Part shown: positions 968 to 46,824 of the stretch, one piece after another
Numbering within the stretch: position 1 is the stretch's first letter
Layout: each line of letters starts with the position of its first letter
Assembly (NCBI GenBank): GCA_964448605.1
Contig: CAYUZV010000003.1
Coordinates: 33,377-97,376 of the forward strand
Length of the DNA: 64,000 bases
From: Candidatus Woesearchaeota archaeon
GTDB lineage: Archaea > Nanobdellota > Nanobdellia > Pacearchaeales > GW2011-AR1
Reading direction: 5' to 3'
Position numbers and translations under genes: made by a program
The notes under the pieces: generated by a model
What the model was told of the DNA's origin: nothing
Database searches by the model: none
Seen by the model: the letters and a program-made list of their open reading frames with translations, nothing else

Positions 968-2054
968 TTTGAATTTCTTGTTTGATTTTTTTTATGAATT
1001 TTTTTGTGTCGAATTTTTTTGCTTGGTTTATGCAAGCATTTTTGTATTTTATTGGGTTTTTGTTTATTATTTTTATTGCTTTTATGATTTTATCTTCATT
1101 TATATTATCTATTAAAATTCCTGTTTTATTGTTTATTATTGATTCTTTGTATCCTCCTTCATTTGGTGCTATTACTGGTTTTCCTGATGCCATTGCTTCG
1201 ACAACATTCATACCGAAATCTTCGTCTTTTGAGGTTGTTAGAAATCCTTTGCATTCTGAATAAAGTTTGATTAGTTGTTTTTCATCAATATTTCCTAATA
1301 AATTAATATTTTTTGGAAGGTTTTTAAGTATTTTTTTTTGGTATTTTTCTGTTCTGTCTCCTGAAGCTATTCCACCTATTATTGTTAAATTTTCATTAGG
1401 AATTTTTTTAAATGCTTTAATCTGCATTTCAATTCTTTTATGAGGATAAATCCTATTTACAGATAAATAATAATTTTTAGGTTTGCTGAATTTTAGTTTA
1501 TTTGTTTCAATTGGTGGGAAAATTGTAGTAGAGTTTCTTTTAAAATATTTTTTAATTCTTTTTTTGACATTTTGGGAGTTTGATATAATTTTGTTTGTGT
1601 GTTTTATATATTTCTCTCCCCATTTTTTGTGCAGATTTGCATATAAATAAAAAATTGGTTTTTCATAAATTTTTAATACTTGTTTATGTTCGTGTTGTTC
1701 GTAGAACATTCTTGTTGGAGTATGGCAATAATAGAGATTGGGTTTGTTTTTTTTTGAAGCAAAAGGAGCCCAGTTTCCTGAAAAAATGAAGAAGTTGTAT
1801 TTTTTTGAAAAATTGCAGGATTTAAAATTGAAAGATGCTTGCAGTTGTTTGAAGGGAGGTATTTTTATTGTATTTCCTAAATTTATGAAATTAATATCCT
1901 GAGAGTTTGTTTTTTTTATTGAATTTTTGTTTAAATTGTTAGTTATTAAATCTGCTTTAAGATTTCTTGCTAAGGTTATTGCAACTTTTTCTCCTCCTCC
2001 TATTGAATCAAAAAAGTCGTGGAAAATTGCTATTTTTAGATTTTGTGGTTTCAT
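948..2054 (-). CDS. Glycosyltransferase family 4 (GT-B fold)
   Basis: GGGEKV N-terminal motif, YYCHTP, and EDFGMNVVEAMASGKPVI C-terminal motif. Confidence 0.9.
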   Translation of the reverse strand: MKPQNLKIAIFHDFFDSIGGGEKVAITLARNLKADLITNNLNKNSIKKTNSQDINFINLGNTIKIPPFKQLQASFNFKSCNFSKKYNFFIFSGNWAPFASKKNKPNLYYCHTPTRMFYEQHEHKQVLKIYEKPIFYLYANLHKKWGEKYIKHTNKIISNSQNVKKRIKKYFKRNSTTIFPPIETNKLKFSKPKNYYLSVNRIYPHKRIEMQIKAFKKIPNENLTIIGGIASGDRTEKYQKKILKNLPKNINLLGNIDEKQLIKLYSECKGFLTTSKDEDFGMNVVEAMASGKPVIAPNEGGYKESIINNKTGILIDNINEDKIIKAIKIINKNPIKYKNACINQAKKFDTKKFIKKIKQEIQNAIKQS

Positions 2055-3220
2055 TTTTCTTTAATTCCTAAAATGCTTATCATAAATGATGAGAATATTG
2101 TTTGAATTCCTATGATTAGAAGTGTTGAGCCGATTATTAGGTTTTTGATTTGGTCTAATGAACTGAAGTTTGCATTTATCCATTTGATTAGAACATAGAT
2201 GTAGATTATTGCTCCTGTTAAAAGGATTAGTCCTCCTGTTATGATTGAGTTTTCAATTGTGATGTAATTGAAGATTTTTTTAAGTGGTGAGTTTTCGTTT
2301 AAGTGGTTTATTGCATAGATTTTTGCAAACATTGAGAAAATTATGAGTTGGTAGCCAGTGATTATGAATAAGGAGGAGAGGAAAAGGGGGTGGGTGTGGA
2401 GGGTTATTCCAAATACTTTTGCTGTTCCAAAATAAATCCATAGCATTGTTATTGTTCCTAATAGGAAAAGGATTAAACCTGGTATAAAAAAAAGAAATAA
2501 AGGTGAGTAGAGAAGCATAAATCTCATGTGTCTCCATGCATCTGGAAAGGATTTGAGTTTGGATTTTCCAATTCTTTTATGGTAGTTTATTGGAATTTGT
2601 TTTATTTTTAGTTTGTTTTTAAGTGCTTTGATAACCATTTCTGATGCAAATTCCATTCCTGTTGTTTGAAGGTTTAATTTTTTTAGTGATTCTGTTTTAA
2701 TTGCTCTCATTCCAGAATGAGAATCTTTGATTTTTGCTTTGAAAAATAATCTTAGAATTCCTGAGAGAATTGGGTTTCCTATGTGTTGGTGAGACCAGGG
2801 CATTGCATTTTTGTCTATTTTTCCTTTAAATCTGTTTCCAATTACAAAATCATATCCTTGTTTTAGTGCATTGAGGAATTTAGGTATTTCATTGAAATCA
2901 TAAGTTCCATCGCAGTCTGCTAAGAAGATGTAAGGAGTTTTTATGTGTTTGAATGTTTCTAAATATGCATTTCCATAACCTTCTTTGTCGTGTTTTATTA
3001 AAGTTACATTGTGTTGTTTTGCTATTTCAGGTGAATTGTCTGTTGAAGAGTCTGAAACAATTATTTCTGCTTTAATGTTATTGTTTTTTAAGGTTTGTTT
3101 TATTTGAGTTAGAACAGAAGGAAGTGCTTTTTCTTCATTTCTGCAAGGGAGAATAATAGTTAGTTCTGGTTTTGTTGTTAGTATTTGGTTTAGTATTTTT
3201 TCTGTGTTGAAATTTTCCAT
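2051..3220 (-). CDS. GT2 dolichol-phosphate mannosyltransferase-like protein with C-terminal transmembrane helices
   Basis: IILPCRNEE, VSDSSTDNS, GYGNA, ADCDGTY and DFVIGNRF motifs; hydrophobic C-terminal third. Confidence 0.85.
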   Translation of the reverse strand: MENFNTEKILNQILTTKPELTIILPCRNEEKALPSVLTQIKQTLKNNNIKAEIIVSDSSTDNSPEIAKQHNVTLIKHDKEGYGNAYLETFKHIKTPYIFLADCDGTYDFNEIPKFLNALKQGYDFVIGNRFKGKIDKNAMPWSHQHIGNPILSGILRLFFKAKIKDSHSGMRAIKTESLKKLNLQTTGMEFASEMVIKALKNKLKIKQIPINYHKRIGKSKLKSFPDAWRHMRFMLLYSPLFLFFIPGLILFLLGTITMLWIYFGTAKVFGITLHTHPLFLSSLFIITGYQLIIFSMFAKIYAINHLNENSPLKKIFNYITIENSIITGGLILLTGAIIYIYVLIKWINANFSSLDQIKNLIIGSTLLIIGIQTIFSSFMISILGIKEK

Positions 3221-3302
3221 GATTTTATAATGTTTTTTGGTTTATATTTTTTGTTGTGGGGTGATGATGGTTTTTGTTTAAAATTAGGTAGTATCGCCAA
3301 CC

Positions 3303-3431
3303 TAATTTTTTAATACAGAAATAAATCTCCATTATTTATAATGGAGTTGGAGATTGATTTCTGTCCTCACCAAATCCAAAACAAACTCTCCACTTTAGTT
3401 TGGAGTTCAATCCGAAGGATTTGGTGATTTT
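3303..3431. mobile_element. Palindromic dispersed repeat, copy 1 (IS200/IS605-end-like, non-autonomous)
   Basis: Near-identical to 46695-46824. Nested inverted repeats TCACCAAATCC/GGATTTGGTGA and ACAGAAAT..AATCTCC/GGAGATT..ATTTCTGT; inner stem with a CTTTAG loop region. Confidence 0.65.
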
Positions 3432-3546
3432 ATAGGTAATTGATGAATGTTTTTAAGATGATTTTTTGGAGGTATTTCTTGAATTGTTGTCAAACGAGGA
3501 TTTAGGAGGGATTTTGCTGGTTTTTGGAAATAAACAAAAAAATTTA

Positions 3547-3568
3547 TAAGTAAGAATTTTCTTACTTA
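3547..3568. promoter_or_regulatory. Operator-like perfect inverted repeat next to the TATA box of the AbrB-family gene
   Basis: TAAGTAAGAA-TT-TTCTTACTTA directly after AAAAAATTTATA and 3 nt before the ATG at 3572. Confidence 0.6.
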
Positions 3569-3571
3569 GAT

Positions 3572-3853
3572 ATGGAAAATAATTTTATTAAAAATTTAAA
3601 AATATCTGATAAAGGGCAAATTTCTATCCCTAATTTTGTAAGGCAAAAATTGGGTATTCACAGAGGGGATAATTTGGTTTTGTTTGAAGTAGATGGTAAA
3701 ATTTTAATTGAAAAACAGCAGAGGGTATTGGATAAAATGAAGTATGATTTTAAAGATATTTTGCATTTTTCAGAACATTCATTGAGAGAGATTTGGGATA
3801 ATTCTGAAGATGAAATTTGGAGTCAGTATTTAGAAGATGAGGATGTATGTTAA
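3572..3853 (+). CDS. AbrB/MazE/SpoVT-family antitoxin
   Basis: KISDKGQISIPNFVRQKLGIHRGDNLVLF swapped-hairpin motif; acidic SLREIWDNSEDEIW tail typical of PemK/MazF partners. Confidence 0.8.
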   Translation: MENNFIKNLKISDKGQISIPNFVRQKLGIHRGDNLVLFEVDGKILIEKQQRVLDKMKYDFKDILHFSEHSLREIWDNSEDEIWSQYLEDEDVC

Positions 3854-3953
3854 TCAAAAAGAGATTGTTTTGTTAGATTATCCTTTTTCAAATTTAAAGG
3901 GAACTAAAGCCAACAAATGCTGGAATTTTGTTATTTGGAAAGAATCCTGGTGA
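3843..3953 (+). pseudogene. Truncated PemK/MazF toxin (N-terminal ~22 aa only)
   Basis: Overlaps the antitoxin stop. Reads MYVNQKEIVLLDYPFSNLKGTK, matching the MazF start (xIVLxxFPFSDxxxxKxRP), then breaks just before the catalytic RP and stops at 3953. Confidence 0.7.
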
Positions 3954-6873
3954 ATTTTTTCCAAGGAGTTATATTACTATTGCAAGGTATCCTGGAAAAG
4001 ATGTGGGTATTGCTTATTTGGAGCTTAAAGATATTGAAGGGAATTTGTTTGAGATTATTGATAATTCTGAAAAATATATTCAAGAGCATACTGAAAGTTT
4101 TTATATGTTAAAAGAAGGGCAAATAGAGAGGAAGAGAGTGCCTCAATATCCTGATTTTGTTATTAGGGAATTGATTGTTAATGCTGTTGCACATAGGGAT
4201 TATAGAATTATGGGTTCAAAAACTTTGATTAAAATGTTTAAAGATAGGATTGAGTTTGATTCTCCAGGAGGTTTTGGAGGTGATGTTAATGAGAAGAATA
4301 TCTTATATAAACAATATACTCGGAATCCTGTTATTGCAAGAATTTTGAATAAAATTAGATATATTGAGGATATGGGGGAGGGATGGAATAGAATAATTGA
4401 TGTAATTGATAATTATGAGCTGGATTTTAAGAAAAAACCTGAAGTTAAGGGAGATACAAGGGTTGTTGTTACACTTTATCCTGGAAGTAGTGAGGTTGAG
4501 AATAAAGAGAAAAAGGGGGAGAAAGTTGAAGAAACTACCCAGAAAACTACCCAGAAAACTACCCAGAAAATTATTAATTTGATAAAAGAGAATCCTAAGA
4601 TTACAAGAAAAGAATTATCAATTATTATTGGATTAAGTGAGGATGGAATAAAATATAATCTTAATAGACTTAAAGCTGAAGGATTGTTAAAAAGAATTGG
4701 TTCTGATAAGGGTGGTTATTGGGAGATTGTTGGAGATTTGAAGGAGAAGAAAAAGAAATCTGGTTTAAGTGGTGTTAATTTGTTTTTGATTTTGGGAATA
4801 GGGTTGTTGTTAGTTTTGAGCAGTATGATTGGAGTTAGGGGGATTGGTGATTCTGGTTTTGAGTTGATTAAAATTTCTGATATTTATGAGGGTGTTTTAG
4901 ATGGCAGGGTTAATGTTAGTGAATTAGTTTTATTGTATGAGTGTGAGGAAGTTAGGATTAAGAGTATTGAAGATTTAGGGGGTGGGGATTATAAGGTGAT
5001 TGTTGAGGGGGAAGATATTGATGAATTGCAAGGTGAGAGTGAGGGTGGGAGATGTTTTATTAGAGGGGTTGGGAGGTGGGTGGAGGAGGATTATGATTTA
5101 ATTGCTGGAGTAGATTTTGAAGATTCAGAAAGAACAAGTTCCTCTGACTCTTCAAAACCTTTAATTGCTGGAGTAGATTTTGAAGATTCAGAAAGAAATG
5201 GGGTGGTGAGTGTGGGAGATATTATTTATTTAGACCCAACAATAACAATAGATGAATTTAAAACAAGTGAGTCAATAGACACTAACATAACTCAAGAGAA
5301 TAATTATTCTCATTTGGATATTTCAGATGTTGCACCTTATGATAGTTTAATTGGTTATTGGAGTTTTGATGATAATGTTTCAGGGTGTTATGATAGTGAG
5401 ACAGAGATTTTGAGTTTAGAAGAAGTTGATTGTGTTGGAGAGTATGATTATGTTGAGATTGACGGGAAGTTGATTGAGGTTAATTCTTCCACTATCCTTT
5501 TCTATGATGAATTAGAAGATAATTTGAATGATGAATATATTGGTAACTTGATACAGGGGAGGAGGGGAGGGGTGGAAGATAATTATAATGAGCAAAACGA
5601 GAGTTGTTTAGATTTATCAGGTTTTGATAAAAAATGCTATGTTAAAAAATGGAAGTATTTTTATGAGTTAGAGAATGGTGAGAGGGTTATGACTTTGGAT
5701 GGTGAGAGAGGGGAGAGTGAATGGGAGGTTCCTATGGAGAGGCAGGTTTTTGATAATAGGGAGTTGGGTGGGGAGATGTATAGAATTGAAATGGTTGATA
5801 GCAGTGGTGATGTTGGTGAGTTAGTTGTTAGTGAAAAGCATAAGGTTTATGCTTCTAAAAATTCTTTAAGTTCTTTAGTTGCAAATACTTCTCTAACTGA
5901 TTGTTCTTTAAGATGTGGGTCTTCGGACCAAATCGGGCAGTTAAGTTTTAATGCTAGTGCAAGATATGGAGCATCATTAGGATCTGAAATTAATGATTTA
6001 GCCCAGTTTAATTGTTGTGGAGAAAATTTAAGTTTTAAGTTAATTAATTTTGATAATATTTCTTTTATTCTTTCAAATTTTTCAGTGGATACATTTAGCA
6101 ATTCACAAAGTTCTTCAGAATGTTTTTCTAATTCATTTAATATGAATTTGTGTGAATATAATTCTAAAGAATATTCTTTGGTTAATGTTCTTGTAAAGGA
6201 TTCTTTTTTTAATAGTGAAAAAGCTATGTTAGCATCAATTACTAATTTCATCTATTGTCCTCCCGGGTGTTTTGTAAATCTTTCTTTAACAAGTTTAGCA
6301 AATCTTAAACAATCCTCATCTGTTAGTTTGCTGTCTTTGGTTAATTCTTCAAGTTCTTCAAATAATTTTGATTTTTCATTTTGTAAAAGTATTTCTCGTC
6401 TTGCAAGTTCAGACCAGTTAACCCAAGAAAATTCTTTCATTTCAGATTTGAGTTTATCAGGAACAGAAAAAGTTACAGATGCCATTTATAATTTACCTCT
6501 TTCTAGTTTTTTTAATTGCTCTATTTTTGAGGATATCATTTTTCTAAATACTTCAGACCATTTAATTTTAGGATGCTTGTCTATTTTGGATTTTAATTCT
6601 TCTGGAATTGATAATGTTACGGTTGCCATTTTAACTTTTAATAATTATGTTAGTGAACATAAATATGTTGATATTTATAAATCTTTTGGTTTAAGAAAGA
6701 TTGAAGAAGTAAATAATGATTTTAATAAAGGTGAGGAGGTTTGGTTTATGGATTCTGATGGGGAGTTGGTTGAGGTTAAAGATATTGAGAAAGTTGATTA
6801 TTTCGGAAAGATTTATGATGTTGATGTTGAGAATGATATTGTGTTGGTGAGGAGGATGTTTCTTTTGAATTAG
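3928..6873 (+). CDS. Composite 981-aa ORF: truncated RecG-C/HATPase_c_4-like + HTH fragment, signal/TM segment, LamG-like start, intein-like Hint domain with nested antisense cargo
   Basis: The frame is open from PTNAGILLFGKNP (3910) but has no convincing start. IRELIVNAVAHRDY..IEFDSPGG..RNPVIA..IEDMGEG; HTH ITRKELS..LKRIGSDKGGYWEI; hydrophobic LFLILGIGLLLVLSS; DSLIGYWSFDD; then Hint motifs. Confidence 0.6.
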   Translation: MLFGKNPGEFFPRSYITIARYPGKDVGIAYLELKDIEGNLFEIIDNSEKYIQEHTESFYMLKEGQIERKRVPQYPDFVIRELIVNAVAHRDYRIMGSKTLIKMFKDRIEFDSPGGFGGDVNEKNILYKQYTRNPVIARILNKIRYIEDMGEGWNRIIDVIDNYELDFKKKPEVKGDTRVVVTLYPGSSEVENKEKKGEKVEETTQKTTQKTTQKIINLIKENPKITRKELSIIIGLSEDGIKYNLNRLKAEGLLKRIGSDKGGYWEIVGDLKEKKKKSGLSGVNLFLILGIGLLLVLSSMIGVRGIGDSGFELIKISDIYEGVLDGRVNVSELVLLYECEEVRIKSIEDLGGGDYKVIVEGEDIDELQGESEGGRCFIRGVGRWVEEDYDLIAGVDFEDSERTSSSDSSKPLIAGVDFEDSERNGVVSVGDIIYLDPTITIDEFKTSESIDTNITQENNYSHLDISDVAPYDSLIGYWSFDDNVSGCYDSETEILSLEEVDCVGEYDYVEIDGKLIEVNSSTILFYDELEDNLNDEYIGNLIQGRRGGVEDNYNEQNESCLDLSGFDKKCYVKKWKYFYELENGERVMTLDGERGESEWEVPMERQVFDNRELGGEMYRIEMVDSSGDVGELVVSEKHKVYASKNSLSSLVANTSLTDCSLRCGSSDQIGQLSFNASARYGASLGSEINDLAQFNCCGENLSFKLINFDNISFILSNFSVDTFSNSQSSSECFSNSFNMNLCEYNSKEYSLVNVLVKDSFFNSEKAMLASITNFIYCPPGCFVNLSLTSLANLKQSSSVSLLSLVNSSSSSNNFDFSFCKSISRLASSDQLTQENSFISDLSLSGTEKVTDAIYNLPLSSFFNCSIFEDIIFLNTSDHLILGCLSILDFNSSGIDNVTVAILTFNNYVSEHKYVDIYKSFGLRKIEEVNNDFNKGEEVWFMDSDGELVEVKDIEKVDYFGKIYDVDVENDIVLVRRMFLLN
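4534..4569 (+). repeat. Tandem repeat (ACTACCCAGAAA)x3 encoding TTQK x3
   Basis: Three exact 12-bp units in the linker before the HTH. Confidence 0.9.
5097..5197 (+). repeat. 38-bp direct repeat with 63-bp period (LIAGVDFEDSER x2)
   Basis: TTTAATTGCTGGAGTAGATTTTGAAGATTCAGAAAGAA at 5097-5134 and 5160-5197. Confidence 0.9.
5847..6251 (-). CDS. PIN-domain (VapC-like) toxin nested antisense in the Hint domain
   Basis: LVIDANI, LNELEKH, DPNDAPYLALAL and IWSEDPHL give the PIN acidic tetrad; SD-like GGAGG upstream. Confidence 0.85.
   Translation of the reverse strand: MKLVIDANIAFSLLKKESFTRTLTKEYSLELYSHKFILNELEKHSEELCELLNVSTEKFERIKEILSKLINLKLKFSPQQLNWAKSLISDPNDAPYLALALKLNCPIWSEDPHLKEQSVREVFATKELKEFLEA
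6252..6485 (-). CDS. Ribbon-helix-helix antitoxin-like protein nested antisense in the Hint domain
   Basis: MASVTFSVPDKLKSEMKEFSWVNWSELARREI (beta strand plus two helices); SD-like GAGGT; its stop abuts the toxin ATG. Confidence 0.8.
   Translation of the reverse strand: MASVTFSVPDKLKSEMKEFSWVNWSELARREILLQNEKSKLFEELEELTKDSKLTDEDCLRFAKLVKERFTKHPGGQ
6486..6629 (-). CDS. Second RHH antitoxin-like protein (47 aa, not in the ORF track)
   Basis: Manual translation MATVTLSIPEELKSKIDKHPKIKWSEVFRKMISSKIEQLKKLERGKL*; paralogous to 6252-6485. Confidence 0.75.
   Translation of the reverse strand: MATVTLSIPEELKSKIDKHPKIKWSEVFRKMISSKIEQLKKLERGKL
6656..6691 (-). promoter_or_regulatory. Archaeal promoter (BRE + TATA) and operator-like palindrome for the nested TA operon
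   Basis: Minus strand AACCAAAAGA-TTTATAAATA (TATA at 6672-6681), then palindrome AACATA-aa-TATGTT (6656-6669), about 45 nt upstream of the ATG at 6629. Confidence 0.6.
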
Positions 6874-7628
6874 AAGGTAATGGAAAAAAGACAATTAACT
6901 TTAGAGTTTTTGGACCTGAAGAGATTGGTGTTTATTCTGGTAAGATTAAGGTTAATGGACAAGAGGTTTTGGTTATTGTTAATATTAAGGAAGAGGATTC
7001 TTTGTTTGATGCTAAGATTGAGATTCCTGGTAATTTTAATAGGATTGGAGAAGGTGAGAGTTTGCCTACTGTTGTGACAATGCTTCCAATGGGTAAGGAA
7101 ACTCGAATGGATATTAGTGTGACTTATGTTGTTAAGGATTTTGATGGAAATGTTTATTTGACAGAAACAGAGACTTTTTTAGTTGATACTAATAGGGTTT
7201 TTAAAAAGGATTTTGATACTTCTGAACTTCCTGAGGGGGATTATTTGGTTGAGATGAATGTTGTTTATCCTAATGGAAATGCTGTTTCAAGTGCTCATTT
7301 TAAGGTTAGAAGAAGTGGAGTTAGTGAGCTTTTGAATTTATTAAAGGGGGTTTGGAGTAAAGCAGTTGAAAATAAGATGATTATAATTATAGGGATAGTA
7401 TGTATTGTTGTTTTGATTCTTTTTGTTTGTTTGTTTAAAAAAATTAAGAGTTTTAAGAATAAGAAGAGAGAAAGTAAGAAAAAAGATTTGAAGAAAAAAC
7501 AGAAGATTAAAGAAGATAAGGATGGTTTTTGGAGCAGGTGGGTAGAGAATAGGAAGAGAAAAAGAGAAGAGAGGAAAAGAAAGAGAGAGGAGAAAAGAAA
7601 AAAGAAAATATTGAGGCAAAGAGATTAA
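6837..7628 (+). pseudogene. C-terminal part of a surface/membrane-anchored protein (Ig-like domains, TM helix, K/R-rich tail), out of frame with the upstream Hint ORF
   Basis: The frame is open from 6837 (EEDVSFELEGNGKKTINFRVFGPEEIGVYSGKIKVNG..) with no ATG start; TM IIIIGIVCIVVLILFVCLF; basic tail. Confidence 0.55.
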
Positions 7629-7866
7629 AGGCATTGGAAAAAGCAGAAGGTATAATTAAAAATCTTAAAAAAGCATAGAGGGTGAGAAGAGGGAAAAAAT
7701 AAGTATTTTTGAATTTTGTCGTCGATAAAATTAATTTTGTTATAGAAAGGTTTTTAAAGGTAAATGCTTATATTTTTTTACAAATGAGTTAGTTTCTAAC
7801 TTGAAAATTAATTAAATTTATAATGGTTATTGAGAGATTTGAGTGAAAGATTGGAGGAATTTTAAT

Positions 7867-8016
7867 ATGAGTGATAAATATGGAGCTGAAAATATAAAGG
7901 TTTTGGAGGGGGTCAGGCATAAGTTTGATTTAGTTGAACTTTCAAGGAAAATAAAAAAGAAAGGAGATATTTTGATTTTGGCTAATGAAAATAAAATTGG
8001 AGGCAATCAAGAATGA
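7867..8016 (+). CDS. 49-aa ORF beginning with a copy of the GyrB N-terminus
   Basis: MSDKYGAENIKVLEGVRHKFDL..GNQE*; its TGA overlaps the gyrB ATG (ATGA). Confidence 0.5.
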   Translation: MSDKYGAENIKVLEGVRHKFDLVELSRKIKKKGDILILANENKIGGNQE

Positions 8017-9887
8017 CAGATAAGTACGGTGCTGAGAACATAAAAGTTCTCGAAGGTCTTGAGGGCGTCAGGAGGCGTCCTGCAATGTATATTGGAAGTA
8101 CTGGTAAGGAGGGTTTGCATCATTTGGTTTTTGAGGTTGTTGATAATTCTATTGATGAATGTTTGGCTGGATTTTGCAAGGTTGTTGAAATTGTGATTAA
8201 TAAGGATGGTTCTCTTACTGTTAAAGATGATGGAAGAGGTATTCCTGTTGATAAGCATCCTGTTCATAAAAAATCTGCAATGGAGATTGCATTGACTAAA
8301 CTTCATGCAGGGGGGAAATTTGAGAAAAGTGCTTATCAGATTTCAGGAGGTTTGCATGGAGTTGGTGTTAGTTGTGTTAATGCTTTGTCTAAAAAACTTA
8401 AGGCAAGAGTTATGAGGAGTGGAAAAATTCATCAGCAAGAGTATAAAATTGGAAAGCCATTATCTGATGTTAAGGTCGTCGGTAAATGCGGAAGTCAATC
8501 TGGAACTGAAATAACTTTTTTTCCTGATACTGAGATTTTTTCAACTGTTGAATTTGATTTTGCTGTTTTAAGAAAAAGATTGCAGGAGATTGCTTTTTTA
8601 AATCCTGTTAAGATTGTTTTGAAAGATGAGAGAAATGGAAAAAAGGAGGTTTTTCATTATACAGGAGGTTTAAGAGAATTTATTGAGCATATTAATAAAA
8701 CCAAGAGTGTTTTGCATAAGCCGGTTTATTTTAAGAAAGAGTTGGATGGGAATTCTGTTGAAGTTGCGATTCAGTATACTGATAGTTATAATGAGAATTT
8801 GTTTGGTTTTGTTAATACTATTAATACTACTGAAGGAGGGACTCATGTTTCTGGTTTTAAGACTGCGATTACAAGGGCTATTAATGATTATATTACTAAA
8901 AAGAATATGTTAAAGAATGAGAAGATTTCAGGAGATGATACCCGGGAAGGTTTGACTGCAGTTATTAATATTAAAATGAAGGATCCTCAGTTTGAAGGGC
9001 AGACAAAGACGAAATTGGGTAATTCTGAAATGAAAGGTATTGTTGATTCTATGGTTTTTATTTCTCTGACTGAATTTTTAGAAGAGAATCCAAGTATTGC
9101 TAATAAAATTGCTCAAAAAATTGTTAGTTCTGCAAAAGCTCGTAGTGCTGCAAAAAAAGCTCGTGATTTGGTTAGAAGGAAGAATGCAATGGGTGTTAGT
9201 GGTTTGCCTGGAAAACTTGCTGATTGTTCAAGTAAAAAGGTAGAGAAAACTGAATTGTATATTGTTGAAGGAGATAGTGCAGCTGGTTCAGGAAAAATGG
9301 CTCGTGATAAAGAGTTTCAGGCGATTCTTCCCTTGAAGGGTAAGATTTTAAATGTTGAAAAATCAAATCCTACTAAGGCATTGAGCAGTGAGGAAATTAT
9401 GAATTTAATTACTGCTATTGGAACTGGTGTTAAGGAGAATTTTGATATTAGTAAATTAAGGTATGGTAAGATTGTTTTGCTTACTGATGCTGATGTTGAT
9501 GGAAGTCATATTGATACTCTTTTGCTTACTTTCTTTTTTAGATATATGCCTGAATTGATTGAGAATGGGAATGTTTTTATTGCTGTTCCTCCTTTGTATA
9601 GATTTAGAAAGAAAAAAGATTATTATGTTTATTCTGAGGAAGAGTTGAAAAAATTGAATGCTAAGCTGGGTAGTGGAGATGTTCAGAGATTTAAAGGGCT
9701 TGGTGAAATGAATGCTCAACAGCTTTGGGATACAACTATGGACCCTAAGAAGAGGATTTTGAAAAAAGTTAAAATTGAGGATGCTGTTATTGCTGATGAA
9801 ACTTTTAATATGCTTATGGGTGATGTTGTTGCTCCTCGTAGGAAATTTATTGAAGTAAATGCTAAGATAGCAGAGGTGGATGTATGA
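8013..9887 (+). CDS. gyrB: DNA gyrase subunit B
   Basis: GLEGVRRRPAMYIG, EVVDNSIDE, DDGRGIP, GGLHGVG, TOPRIM EGDSA and DADVDGSHI, RFKGLGEMN. Confidence 0.97.
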   Translation: MTDKYGAENIKVLEGLEGVRRRPAMYIGSTGKEGLHHLVFEVVDNSIDECLAGFCKVVEIVINKDGSLTVKDDGRGIPVDKHPVHKKSAMEIALTKLHAGGKFEKSAYQISGGLHGVGVSCVNALSKKLKARVMRSGKIHQQEYKIGKPLSDVKVVGKCGSQSGTEITFFPDTEIFSTVEFDFAVLRKRLQEIAFLNPVKIVLKDERNGKKEVFHYTGGLREFIEHINKTKSVLHKPVYFKKELDGNSVEVAIQYTDSYNENLFGFVNTINTTEGGTHVSGFKTAITRAINDYITKKNMLKNEKISGDDTREGLTAVINIKMKDPQFEGQTKTKLGNSEMKGIVDSMVFISLTEFLEENPSIANKIAQKIVSSAKARSAAKKARDLVRRKNAMGVSGLPGKLADCSSKKVEKTELYIVEGDSAAGSGKMARDKEFQAILPLKGKILNVEKSNPTKALSSEEIMNLITAIGTGVKENFDISKLRYGKIVLLTDADVDGSHIDTLLLTFFFRYMPELIENGNVFIAVPPLYRFRKKKDYYVYSEEELKKLNAKLGSGDVQRFKGLGEMNAQQLWDTTMDPKKRILKKVKIEDAVIADETFNMLMGDVVAPRRKFIEVNAKIAEVDV

Positions 9888-10181: not shown

Positions 10182-10873
10182 AATTGAAAAAATCACTGAA
10201 TAAAATAGAGAAATTTGTTAGGTTAAGGTATGGCAGAAACTTAGCTGGGCTTTTGGTTTTTGGAAGTGTTGTGAGTGGTGATTTTGTTGAAGGAAAAAGT
10301 GATATTGATGTTATGATTTTGTTGAAAGATAAAGAGGGTTTGAATTTTGAAGAGGAGATTTTGGAATTGAGTGATGAATTGGGTAGTAGTGGTTTTGTTT
10401 GTCAGTATTTTCATACCTTAAGAAGTATTAAGGATTATGTTTTAAAGAGAAAGAGTTGGGGTGTTTTTGTTGTAATTGCTTCTGAAGATGGTGCTTTTGT
10501 GTTGTTTTCTTCTAAGGGGTTTAAGAGTTTGAAGGATTGGTTTAAGTCGCATCCTTTGACTAAGAATGATTGTGTTTATTATTTAAAAGAAAAACAAAAA
10601 ACAGATGTTAATGGTTATTTTAAAGAGAGAAAGGGTTTTGAATTTACTAAATCGATTTTTGCACATATTAGAAAGCAGTTGCAGATGTTGAATTTTTTTA
10701 AGAGTGGGAAATTGTTGTTTGATTATGAGAAATGTTTGAGAGGTATTGAAGGAGATTGTGAGTTGAAAGAATTGTATGAGAGGTATAAGAATCGTAAAGG
10801 ATTGAGTGTTAGTGAGGGGAAAGTTTATTATGATTATATTCGGAAGTTAAATAATGAAGTGAAGAGGGTTTAA
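10178..10873 (+). CDS. Nucleotidyltransferase (MNT/Pol-beta superfamily) domain protein
   Basis: LLVFGSVVSGDFVEGKSDIDVMILL (GS..DxD); ATG at 10178 preferred over the TTG start in the track. Confidence 0.8.
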   Translation: MKLKKSLNKIEKFVRLRYGRNLAGLLVFGSVVSGDFVEGKSDIDVMILLKDKEGLNFEEEILELSDELGSSGFVCQYFHTLRSIKDYVLKRKSWGVFVVIASEDGAFVLFSSKGFKSLKDWFKSHPLTKNDCVYYLKEKQKTDVNGYFKERKGFEFTKSIFAHIRKQLQMLNFFKSGKLLFDYEKCLRGIEGDCELKELYERYKNRKGLSVSEGKVYYDYIRKLNNEVKRV

Positions 10874-46694: not shown

Positions 46695-46824
46695 TAATTT
46701 TTTAATACAGAAATAAATCTTTATTATGTATAATTGAGTTGGAGATTGATTTCTGTCCTCACCAAATCCAAGACAAACTCCACACTTTAGTGTGGAGTTC
46801 AAATCCGAAGGATTTGGTGATTTT
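46695..46824. mobile_element. Palindromic dispersed repeat, copy 2 (IS200/IS605-end-like, non-autonomous)
   Basis: Near-identical to 3303-3431; perfect AACTCCACAC-TTTA-GTGTGGAGTT hairpin inside the TCACCAAATCC/GGATTTGGTGA stem. Confidence 0.65.

Follow-up and report, generated by a model that had tools for sequence, protein, structure and literature searches.

Inteins are usually seen as vehicles for homing endonucleases or as emptied relics. We analysed a 64,000-nucleotide (nt) stretch of a Candidatus Woesearchaeota genome (assembly GCA_964448605.1, contig CAYUZV010000003.1, positions 33,377 to 97,376; hereafter the window), in which an intein-like Hint domain carries a toxin-antitoxin (TA) operon on the opposite strand. 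The closest described systems are inteins with antisense open reading frames (ORFs) for LAGLIDADG or VSR-like endonucleases, which are known in Synechocystis DnaX, in a Chloroflexus SpoVR-like protein and in actinobacteriophage (bioRxiv 10.1101/2025.01.02.630785). For inteins of this kind, Gosselin, Arsenault and Gogarten cite Gorbalenya 1998 and Gogarten 2002 (bioRxiv 10.1101/2025.01.02.630785). The host frame of antisense-endonuclease inteins is open, the in-frame stretch is unstructured, and the origin proposed for them is a free-standing gene that invaded an intein (bioRxiv 10.1101/2025.01.02.630785).

The locus in the window resembles these inteins in its opposite-strand coding between the splicing blocks, its open host frame and its structureless in-frame translation. 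It differs in that the cargo is a two- or three-gene TA operon with its own promoter and no homing function, and in that cargo of the family is also found in the A-B and F-G loops. The hosts here are giant DPANN surface proteins, whereas antisense-endonuclease inteins sit in replication or phage genes. An antisense endonuclease in an intein has already been published; the TA cargo is new, and literature searches found no paper on TA operons inside inteins. We consider it highly probable that window positions 5386-6858 are the relic of a member of a class-1-type intein family in which an antisense TA operon occupies the endonuclease slot and the host frame is kept open.

The antisense operon between Hint blocks B and F

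A + strand frame of 981 codons (3928-6873) runs without a stop through three abutting minus-strand genes. Family alignment and sequence place the N-terminal Hint half at 5386-5850 (+), with block A (CYDSETEIL, 5386-5412; Cys1 codon at 5386-5388), a variable A-B loop and block B (VVSEKHKVY, 5824-5850). The C-terminal Hint half (6646-6858, +) extends as far as block F (IYDVDVENDIVLV, 6811-6849), followed by RR to 6855. Between the two halves, the + translation of 5851-6645 consists of 54% Ser, Asn, Leu and Phe, compared with 22% in the Hint parts, and has no match in Pfam. An initial annotation of this DNA had placed Hint blocks A, B and F on the + frame, with Ser/Asn/Leu/Phe-rich codons and three minus-strand genes between blocks B and F. 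Both placements were borne out, the genes being exact ORFs at 6486-6629, 6252-6485 and 5847-6251.

The gene at 5847-6251 (minus strand) encodes a PIN_2 toxin of 134 amino acids (aa; Pfam PF10130, E=2e-21) that is 76% identical to its orthologue within an intact intein of genome G027. Across 16 cargo PINs, the acidic residues E40 and D93 are invariant, D6 is nearly invariant and D/E111 is conserved. The toxin stop codon (TAA, 5847-5849) spans the block-B codons for V (5845-5847) and Y (5848-5850), as the initial annotation had read it. Abutting the toxin gene is an antitoxin candidate (6252-6485, minus strand) of 77 aa, with a ribbon-helix-helix (RHH)-like N-terminus and an acidic C-terminal tail. 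It has no Pfam hit and belongs to the same family as the antitoxins upstream of PIN_2 in 20 or more inteins. The third gene (6486-6629, minus strand) encodes a small RHH-like protein of 47 aa, a candidate repressor. The pattern M..vTlS.P.elk....nWSe.aR is common to both small window genes. All three genes abut exactly (TAA-ATG and TAG-ATG).

While the PIN assignment stood, with its acidic residues conserved, the RHH label that had been given to both small genes is weakly supported. Pfam RHH_1 matches are weak (E=0.15 and 0.023), the proteins have no sequence match in the PDB, and a fold search gave no significant match, the sole RHH antitoxins listed (ParD2 and VapB) having E values of ~9. An AlphaFold model of the RHH-like protein has an extended-helix-helix (strand-helix-helix) arrangement, with a predicted local distance difference test score (pLDDT) of 83. 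We call the two small genes RHH-like and no more.

Like VapBC modules, which consist of a PIN toxin and an upstream RHH or AbrB antitoxin, the window operon combines PIN_2 acidic residues with an abutting antitoxin-sized gene and a palindrome near the promoter. Unlike VapBC, it has two RHH-like genes and lies wholly within the frame of another gene, which constrains its codon choice. From these features we predict a VapBC-like type II TA module, in which toxicity and neutralisation are likewise predictions.

The cargo-operon promoter region falls within host codons (6630-6689, minus strand). Here the sequence contains a CCAAAAG resembling the B recognition element (BRE; 6683-6689), a TATA-like ATTTATAAATA (6672-6682) and the palindrome AACATAAATATGTT (6656-6669). 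A BRE/TATA pair and a palindrome embedded in Hint codons, as first described, are present at 6656-6689. The same anatomy recurs in the family. In ~30 of 30 operons, a purine-rich (BRE-like) stretch and a TATA-like box lie 30-55 nt before the first ATG. The variants are gaaaGTTTTTTATAAT, gaaaaaCTTAAATAAT or ccaaaaGATTTATAAAT, and the host-frame codons of these promoters spell DYKKLS, DYLSFS or YKSF, peptides that recur. The window, G027 and G023 (contig C45) all keep the palindrome AACATAwwTATGTT. Toxins of several unrelated families have their stop within the GTTTAT codons of block B. The 47-aa RHH-like gene turns up again, next to the promoter and as the third gene of the operon, alongside PIN, ParE-like and DUF5615 cargos; on metagenome contigs, seven operons belonging to three cargo families contain an RHH1-labelled gene.

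Every cargo is equipped with a promoter that points against the host gene, an arrangement that would suit antisense operons acting mainly as regulators, whose transcription collides with or silences the giant gene. We regard this as improbable, since it leaves the intact, conserved toxin and antitoxin proteins unexplained. A further candidate, that the minus-strand ORFs are shadows of a real + strand linker, was ruled out by the Pfam matches to PIN_2, ParE, DUF433 and DUF5615.

An endonuclease-less intein family in giant surface-protein genes

Members of the family share Cys1, a block B with S-x-x-H, block F and a C-terminal WSGN|S. Cys1 and the S-x-x-H of block B are invariant across the family, window copy included, and WSGN|S is present in every relative whose contig extends that far. 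We modelled an intact member of 386 residues (L032) with AlphaFold, using a 12-row alignment that had the window copy among its rows. The model has a pLDDT of ~90 for residues 1-77 and ~85 for residues 316-386, and of ~24 (disordered) for the 238-residue antisense-encoded linker. When this model was compared with the PDB by Foldseek, the top matches were all inteins, bacterial intein-like (BIL) domains or Hedgehog Hint domains, at a probability of 1.00. The best PDB sequence match of a cargo-deleted profile was the M. jannaschii KlbA intein (2jmz, E=0.0076). The window copy aligns to the same Hint blocks as L032. Family members are thus predicted to fold as a Hint domain around a disordered linker. 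Cys1, S-x-x-H, block F and the Hint fold are shared with class 1 and mini-inteins (KlbA 2jmz, PI-PfuI, DnaB), as is the terminal Asn followed by Ser in the relatives. Unlike class 1 inteins, the family lacks an in-frame endonuclease and has Gly rather than His as its penultimate residue, and the window copy is without block G.

The C-exteins of relatives are Laminin_G_3 domains. The predicted G027 spliced product RMDDVNGSGDVVDYMH|SNNGSVEG... matches the uninterrupted LVSWWRMDDANSSTVFDYMGRNNGSVEG... of the same gene. Spliced, the G027 orthologue of the window copy would read RMDDVNGSGDVVDYMH|SNNGSVEGDAKQVDNGKMGKGFEFDG, a match to three repeats that carry no insertion (LVSWWRMDD...DYMGRNNGSVEG...GKGFEFDG). 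Eight residues upstream, G027 has a second insertion site (WWRMDDTNGS|S). The window N-extein, YWSFDDNVSG|, corresponds to this site, and is the only half of the LamG motif that the window keeps. Judged from these alignments, excision would restore the LamG leader motif in relatives. The N|S junction together with the restorable LamG motif points to splicing rather than cleavage only, and we infer that intact copies undergo protein splicing. The same features separate the family from BIL and Hedgehog Hint domains: the fold is the same, with BIL2 and Hedgehog among the top matches, and both occur in variable secreted or surface proteins, but only the family has an intein-type N|S junction and interrupts a LamG motif that excision can restore.

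To count family members, we relied on a broader genome search and a metagenome scan; a narrow-pattern alignment scan of contigs for N-terminal Hint domains had returned two loci. The window's own genome (G000) was searched by tblastn and six-frame reading. It contains four to five paralogous inteins in giant genes. Giant open frames with Hint paralogues lie on contigs C13 (5369-18814; 4482 aa, running off the contig) and C14 (1-11295; 3765 aa). Their antisense cargo comprises two PIN_2-antitoxin pairs stacked in one intein and three pairs of a ParE/RelE-like toxin with an antitoxin. Real host domains resume in frame after each paralogous intein of this genome, and every close homologue of the window cargo genes in it is intein-borne.

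We extended the census to 12 genomes, made up of G000, nine genomes of the same genus and two public metagenome-assembled genomes (MAGs; Woesearchaeota and Nanoarchaeota records). Homologous inteins in the other 11 genomes sit in frames of up to 5176 aa. The 12 genomes hold 27 B-F slots, none of which has a host-frame stop; 26 carry antisense TA operons and one carries sense cargo. On metagenome contigs, scanned as an independent replicate, three of 58 complete slots are empty (50-51 aa). The 57 cargo slots there include 54 with recognisable TA genes, and 55 are stop-free, the other two having one stop each. Altogether, the host frame is stop-free in 82 of the 84 sampled slots. The two slots with a single stop (L098 and L170) are candidates for decaying copies or sequencing errors.

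The cargo families recognised by Pfam are PIN_2 with an RHH-like antitoxin, ParE-like with an antitoxin, DUF5615 (PIN-like) with DUF433, and DUF2283 with a PBECR-like nuclease. ParE-like operons are also housed in large A-B and F-G loops. None of the ~84 family members has a homing endonuclease; the one sense LAGLIDADG-like insert encountered belongs to an unrelated intein (L018). The initial annotation had proposed a 'cargo intein' and suggested looking for antisense genes in homologous Hint domains. These are found in the great majority of slots, and at the level of the family the proposal holds: the cargo varies, the junctions are fixed and the frame is open. For the window copy as a working element it does not, as described below.

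Scaffold and cargo appear from sequence identities to have had different histories. The window Hint core is 78% identical to that of a paralogue (C13#1), but the PINs are only 47% identical. Conversely, the window cargo is 76-83% identical to that of G027, but the Hint cores are only 56% identical. The window and G027 cargo align gap-free over ~830 nt at 80-90% identity, exceeding the Hint flanks.

Further arrangements were observed in relatives. A duplicated block-B segment in G000 (C13:6161-7093) and in L031 (1387-2622) gives the order A-B-cargo-B-cargo-F-G, with two TA operons in one slot, each ending in its own HKVY codons. At C13:10742-13579 (covered in part by L011), an intact family intein has sense, in-frame cargo with two hydrophobic flanks. 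This cargo consists of SLFN_AlbA_2, HATPase_c_4 and a winged helix-turn-helix (wHTH) (Pfam E=9e-22 and 2e-19), and the excised intein would, by its domains, be a fusion with a DNA-binding regulator. ARAGORN detected sense-strand tRNA genes (Val, Ile, Leu; 84-90 nt) in the A-B loop of several inteins: L025 at 1410-1493 (C14:2487-2570 in G000), L028 at 258-347 (C13:17404-17493 in G000), L036 at 2928-3012, 7080-7164 and 10437-10520, and L041 at 3327-3413. The giant ORF reads through these tRNA genes in frame, and the host peptide has ...GSIP... from the T-loop. ARAGORN found no tRNA gene in the window's intein.

Reading register and host-frame stops

All three cargo genes of the window lie in one register, with minus-strand codon position 3 on + codon position 3. 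This confirms the initial reading of abutting genes in a shared wobble-on-wobble register with no + stop across the operon. A + stop can arise in this register only where a minus-strand TAN or CAN codon comes after a codon ending in T (before TAN, also one ending in C). About ten codon pairs had been thought to be at risk; we counted 17. In 17 of 17 pairs the preceding codon ends in A or G, though 36% of codons end in T or C. When synonymous codons were resampled with genome codon usage, the operon remained open in ~0.6-0.8% of trials (P about 0.006-0.008). In ordinary genes of the window genome, 1.2% of 134-codon windows are open in the wobble-on-wobble register, and none of 541 windows spanning 260 codons is open in any antisense frame. 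The ordinary-gene windows agree with the initial description of this antisense register as the most permissive. An alternative genetic code was rejected, as no stops need reassigning.

A TA operon might simply have landed in a dead Hint pseudogene, leaving a + frame that is open by accident. The window copy is indeed broken, and taken alone it is open with P of about 0.006-0.06 depending on the null model. Against this, the same stop-free architecture recurs in 82 of the 84 sampled slots, from independent assemblies, and host domains continue in frame. The window copy alone is suggestive; the family is decisive that the open frame is not due to chance, an explanation to which we give next to no credence. 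Over 30 resampled family operons, ~124 host-frame stops were expected and none was observed.

Register and codon usage are linked across the cargo families. PIN_2 and DUF5615 toxins and all ordinary antitoxins use the wobble-on-wobble register. ParE-like toxins and DUF433 are in the fully antiparallel register, shifted by an ATGA overlap, in which TTA, CTA and TCA are read as host stops. These cargo genes use zero TTA, CTA and TCA codons (P = 0.0004-0.04 for each ParE-like gene). In their operon partners Leu is encoded mainly by TTA, and across the genome TTA accounts for 39% of Leu and TCA for 31% of Ser codons.

As a control, we compared intein-borne PIN_2 genes with homologues elsewhere in related genomes. 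The register in which 10 of 10 intein-borne copies are clean contains 1-8 stops in every one of the 14 clearly free-standing homologues; a comparison of this kind had been proposed in the initial annotation. Four further PIN_2 loci, in short frames without recognisable Hint blocks, are also open and may be relics.

We also compared the window operon with its G027 orthologue. They are separated by 144 differences in 783 nt, with no host stop gained in either. When only the codons that had changed were drawn anew, P was 0.04 and 0.13 for the two operons. At sites 124, 150 and 220, a codon ending in T or C is confined to the orthologue in which the codon that follows is not at risk. The comparison offers modest evidence that, besides a filter on arrival, the open frame may be maintained afterwards. 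The ratio of nonsynonymous to synonymous substitution rates (dN/dS) cannot separate the strands because the wobble positions of both frames coincide.

Inteins could instead be a passive safe harbour, where only cassettes that happen to be stop-free survive, with no later recoding or benefit. The permissiveness of the register (register 3) fits such an account, as do the four open PIN_2 loci outside recognisable Hint domains, and single PIN genes stay open in 10-20% of trials when synonymous codons are shuffled within the gene. It is harder to reconcile with ParE-like toxins lacking every TTA, CTA and TCA, with the strict register rules across 80 or more operons, and with stop-free orthologue divergence that includes compensating third bases at three sites. 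We regard a purely passive harbour as possible, although unlikely. No more than a filter on arrival together with purifying selection on the host frame is needed to account for the data.

The broken copy in the window and the persistence of the family

All homology of the window copy to paralogues and orthologues ends at 6858/6859. Block G (WSGN|S) and the C-extein are absent, and the frame terminates as VLVRRMFLLN*, the MFLLN* lying after the break; the missing C-terminal junction had been recognised from the start. What follows at 6859-7628 (+) is the 3' ~260 codons of an unrelated gene for a membrane-anchored surface protein of ~450 aa. Its frame opens at 6843 and is joined out of frame. 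The gene is full length in G016 and G005, and Pfam matched nothing in the window fragment beyond transmembrane-type noise.

On its 5' side the copy is joined to another truncated intein. Nucleotide homology of the window to C13 begins at 3913, and the 981-aa frame matches C13:10742-13579 collinearly over its residues 1-370 (BLASTP E=3e-32), a stretch that corresponds to the in-frame cargo and C-terminal Hint half there. The remnant of sense cargo at 3928-4740 (+) is truncated at its 5' end. It retains HATPase_c_4 (aa 96-168) and the wHTH (aa 210-255) by Pfam; it has lost AlbA_2, has no proper start, and its own block G is gone. A hydrophobic segment and a degenerate C-terminal Hint half (SGFELIKISDIY...) follow at 4774-5040 (+), identified by alignments and by tblastn matches to C-terminal Hint regions of C13 and C14. 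The block F/G consensus and terminal Asn were not found in this half. An extein remnant (5041-5385, +) then ends in the LamG leader motif LIGYWSFDDNVSG, recognised by comparison with the spliced and uninterrupted leaders WWRMDD.NGS|S..VDYMGRNNG. This remnant also contains a perfect 38-bp direct repeat (5097-5134 and 5160-5197), which duplicates the peptide LIAGVDFEDSER.

Because block G and the C-extein are lost and the 5' side is another truncated intein, the window copy cannot splice. On these alignments, 5386-6858 is best described as a truncated relic, fused out of frame. The TA operon, full length and close to its orthologue, is likely the sole part of the copy that is still active.

This genome, a MAG, contains paralogous Hint copies, and the missing junction could in principle be an assembly artefact that hides an intact intein. 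We find this very improbable. Over stretches longer than 100 nt no paralogue exceeds 88% identity, the locus is internal to a contig of 123 kb, the fragment is truncated on both sides, and the downstream gene is also cut relative to full-length homologues. Assembly collapse on repeats was rejected, there being no near-identical paralogue.

The variable segment around the relic has further features. In G021, the homologue of the gene at 2051-3220 directly adjoins the conserved gene at 8013-9887, so window positions 3221-8012 are variable, inserted material, and the relic sits at a variable intergenic site. At the left edge of this segment is a ~130-bp repeat (3303-3431) that looks like a miniature inverted-repeat transposable element. 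Copies of the repeat with 93-95% identity lie at C3:80071-80200 (window ~46695-46824), C1:151522-151643 and C12:20440-20570, and a weaker one in C4. Just upstream of the truncated intein is an orphan MazE/AbrB-type antitoxin gene (3572-3853, +; Pfam MazE_antitoxin, E=1.7e-8), for which we could recognise no toxin partner. The conserved gene at 8013-9887 encodes 624 aa. In G007, G012, G022, G039 and G042 it lies within an open frame of ~1065 aa in which the match is split at residue ~426, which suggests a classical intein at that site in these five relatives. A mini-ORF at 7843-8016 resembles the N-terminus of the same gene.

The explanation we favour can be put together as follows. The intein family lives in LamG repeats of giant surface-protein genes of DPANN archaea (Pacearchaeota/Woesearchaeota-type). 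Its B-F loop, the usual place of a homing endonuclease, carries a self-contained, putative type II TA operon on the opposite strand. With a BRE/TATA written into the opening codons of the C-terminal Hint half and a stop taken from the V-Y codons of block B, that operon would be an autonomous antisense transcription unit. Where a copy is intact, the ribosome would read the cargo as an unstructured loop of ~260 aa, after which the intein would splice itself out and leave the protein unharmed by the insertion. Insertions that bring in stops would be removed by selection on the giant protein, as a filter on arrival and probably by later maintenance. In the window copy, a rearrangement at 6858/6859 appears to have removed block G and the C-extein.

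Several observations weigh against this explanation. A within-gene synonymous shuffle leaves the window operon open in ~6% of trials (P about 0.06), only moderately unlikely. Many copies share ancestry, so the pooled statistics overstate independence. Pfam Intein_splicing or Hint_2 matches occur in seven of seven members tested, all below gathering scores, and block G of relatives has Gly-Asn, not the usual His-Asn. Finally, an old pseudogene in a genome of 31% GC would not be expected to keep a frame of 981 codons open, which leaves a recent breakage or some persisting selection; the open frame of the window copy is inherited.

How an endonuclease-less family persists is a separate matter. 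In a working 'cargo intein', TA addiction would replace homing: any cell whose intein allele was lost, as when the site is converted to a LamG repeat with no intein, would be poisoned, and the operon would in this way maintain the intein. The inteins are numerous at repeated LamG sites in spite of having no homing endonuclease, all close toxin homologues in G000 are intein-borne, and empty slots are rare among the complete ones, all of which fits addiction. Empty mini-inteins do exist, however, and the discordant histories of cargo and scaffold fit TA cassettes that travel as independent hitch-hikers. In the window, the TA operon outlives a dead intein, which means that the dependence is not mutual. 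We consider addiction as the replacement for homing doubtful. Also doubtful is a broader view in which endonuclease-less inteins are gene-capture platforms. Their permissive A-B, B-F and F-G loops would house cassettes that carry promoters and can be exchanged (antisense TA operons, sense tRNA genes and the sense AlbA_2-HTH regulator). The TA cargo would protect the intein and the giant gene from loss by addiction instead of homing, and broken copies would return TA operons to the free-standing pool.

The family represents a second, recurrent use of the endonuclease slot, in which whole TA operons run backwards through a reading frame and codon usage is shaped by two strands. With 80 or more operons, it forms a natural large data set for the study of selection on antisense overlapping genes. 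In practical terms, gene callers can be expected either to split the giant surface-protein genes of DPANN archaea or to miss their TA genes. The window copy is a case of a TA operon outliving its intein, and the family as a whole may illustrate an alternative persistence strategy for inteins that lack an endonuclease.

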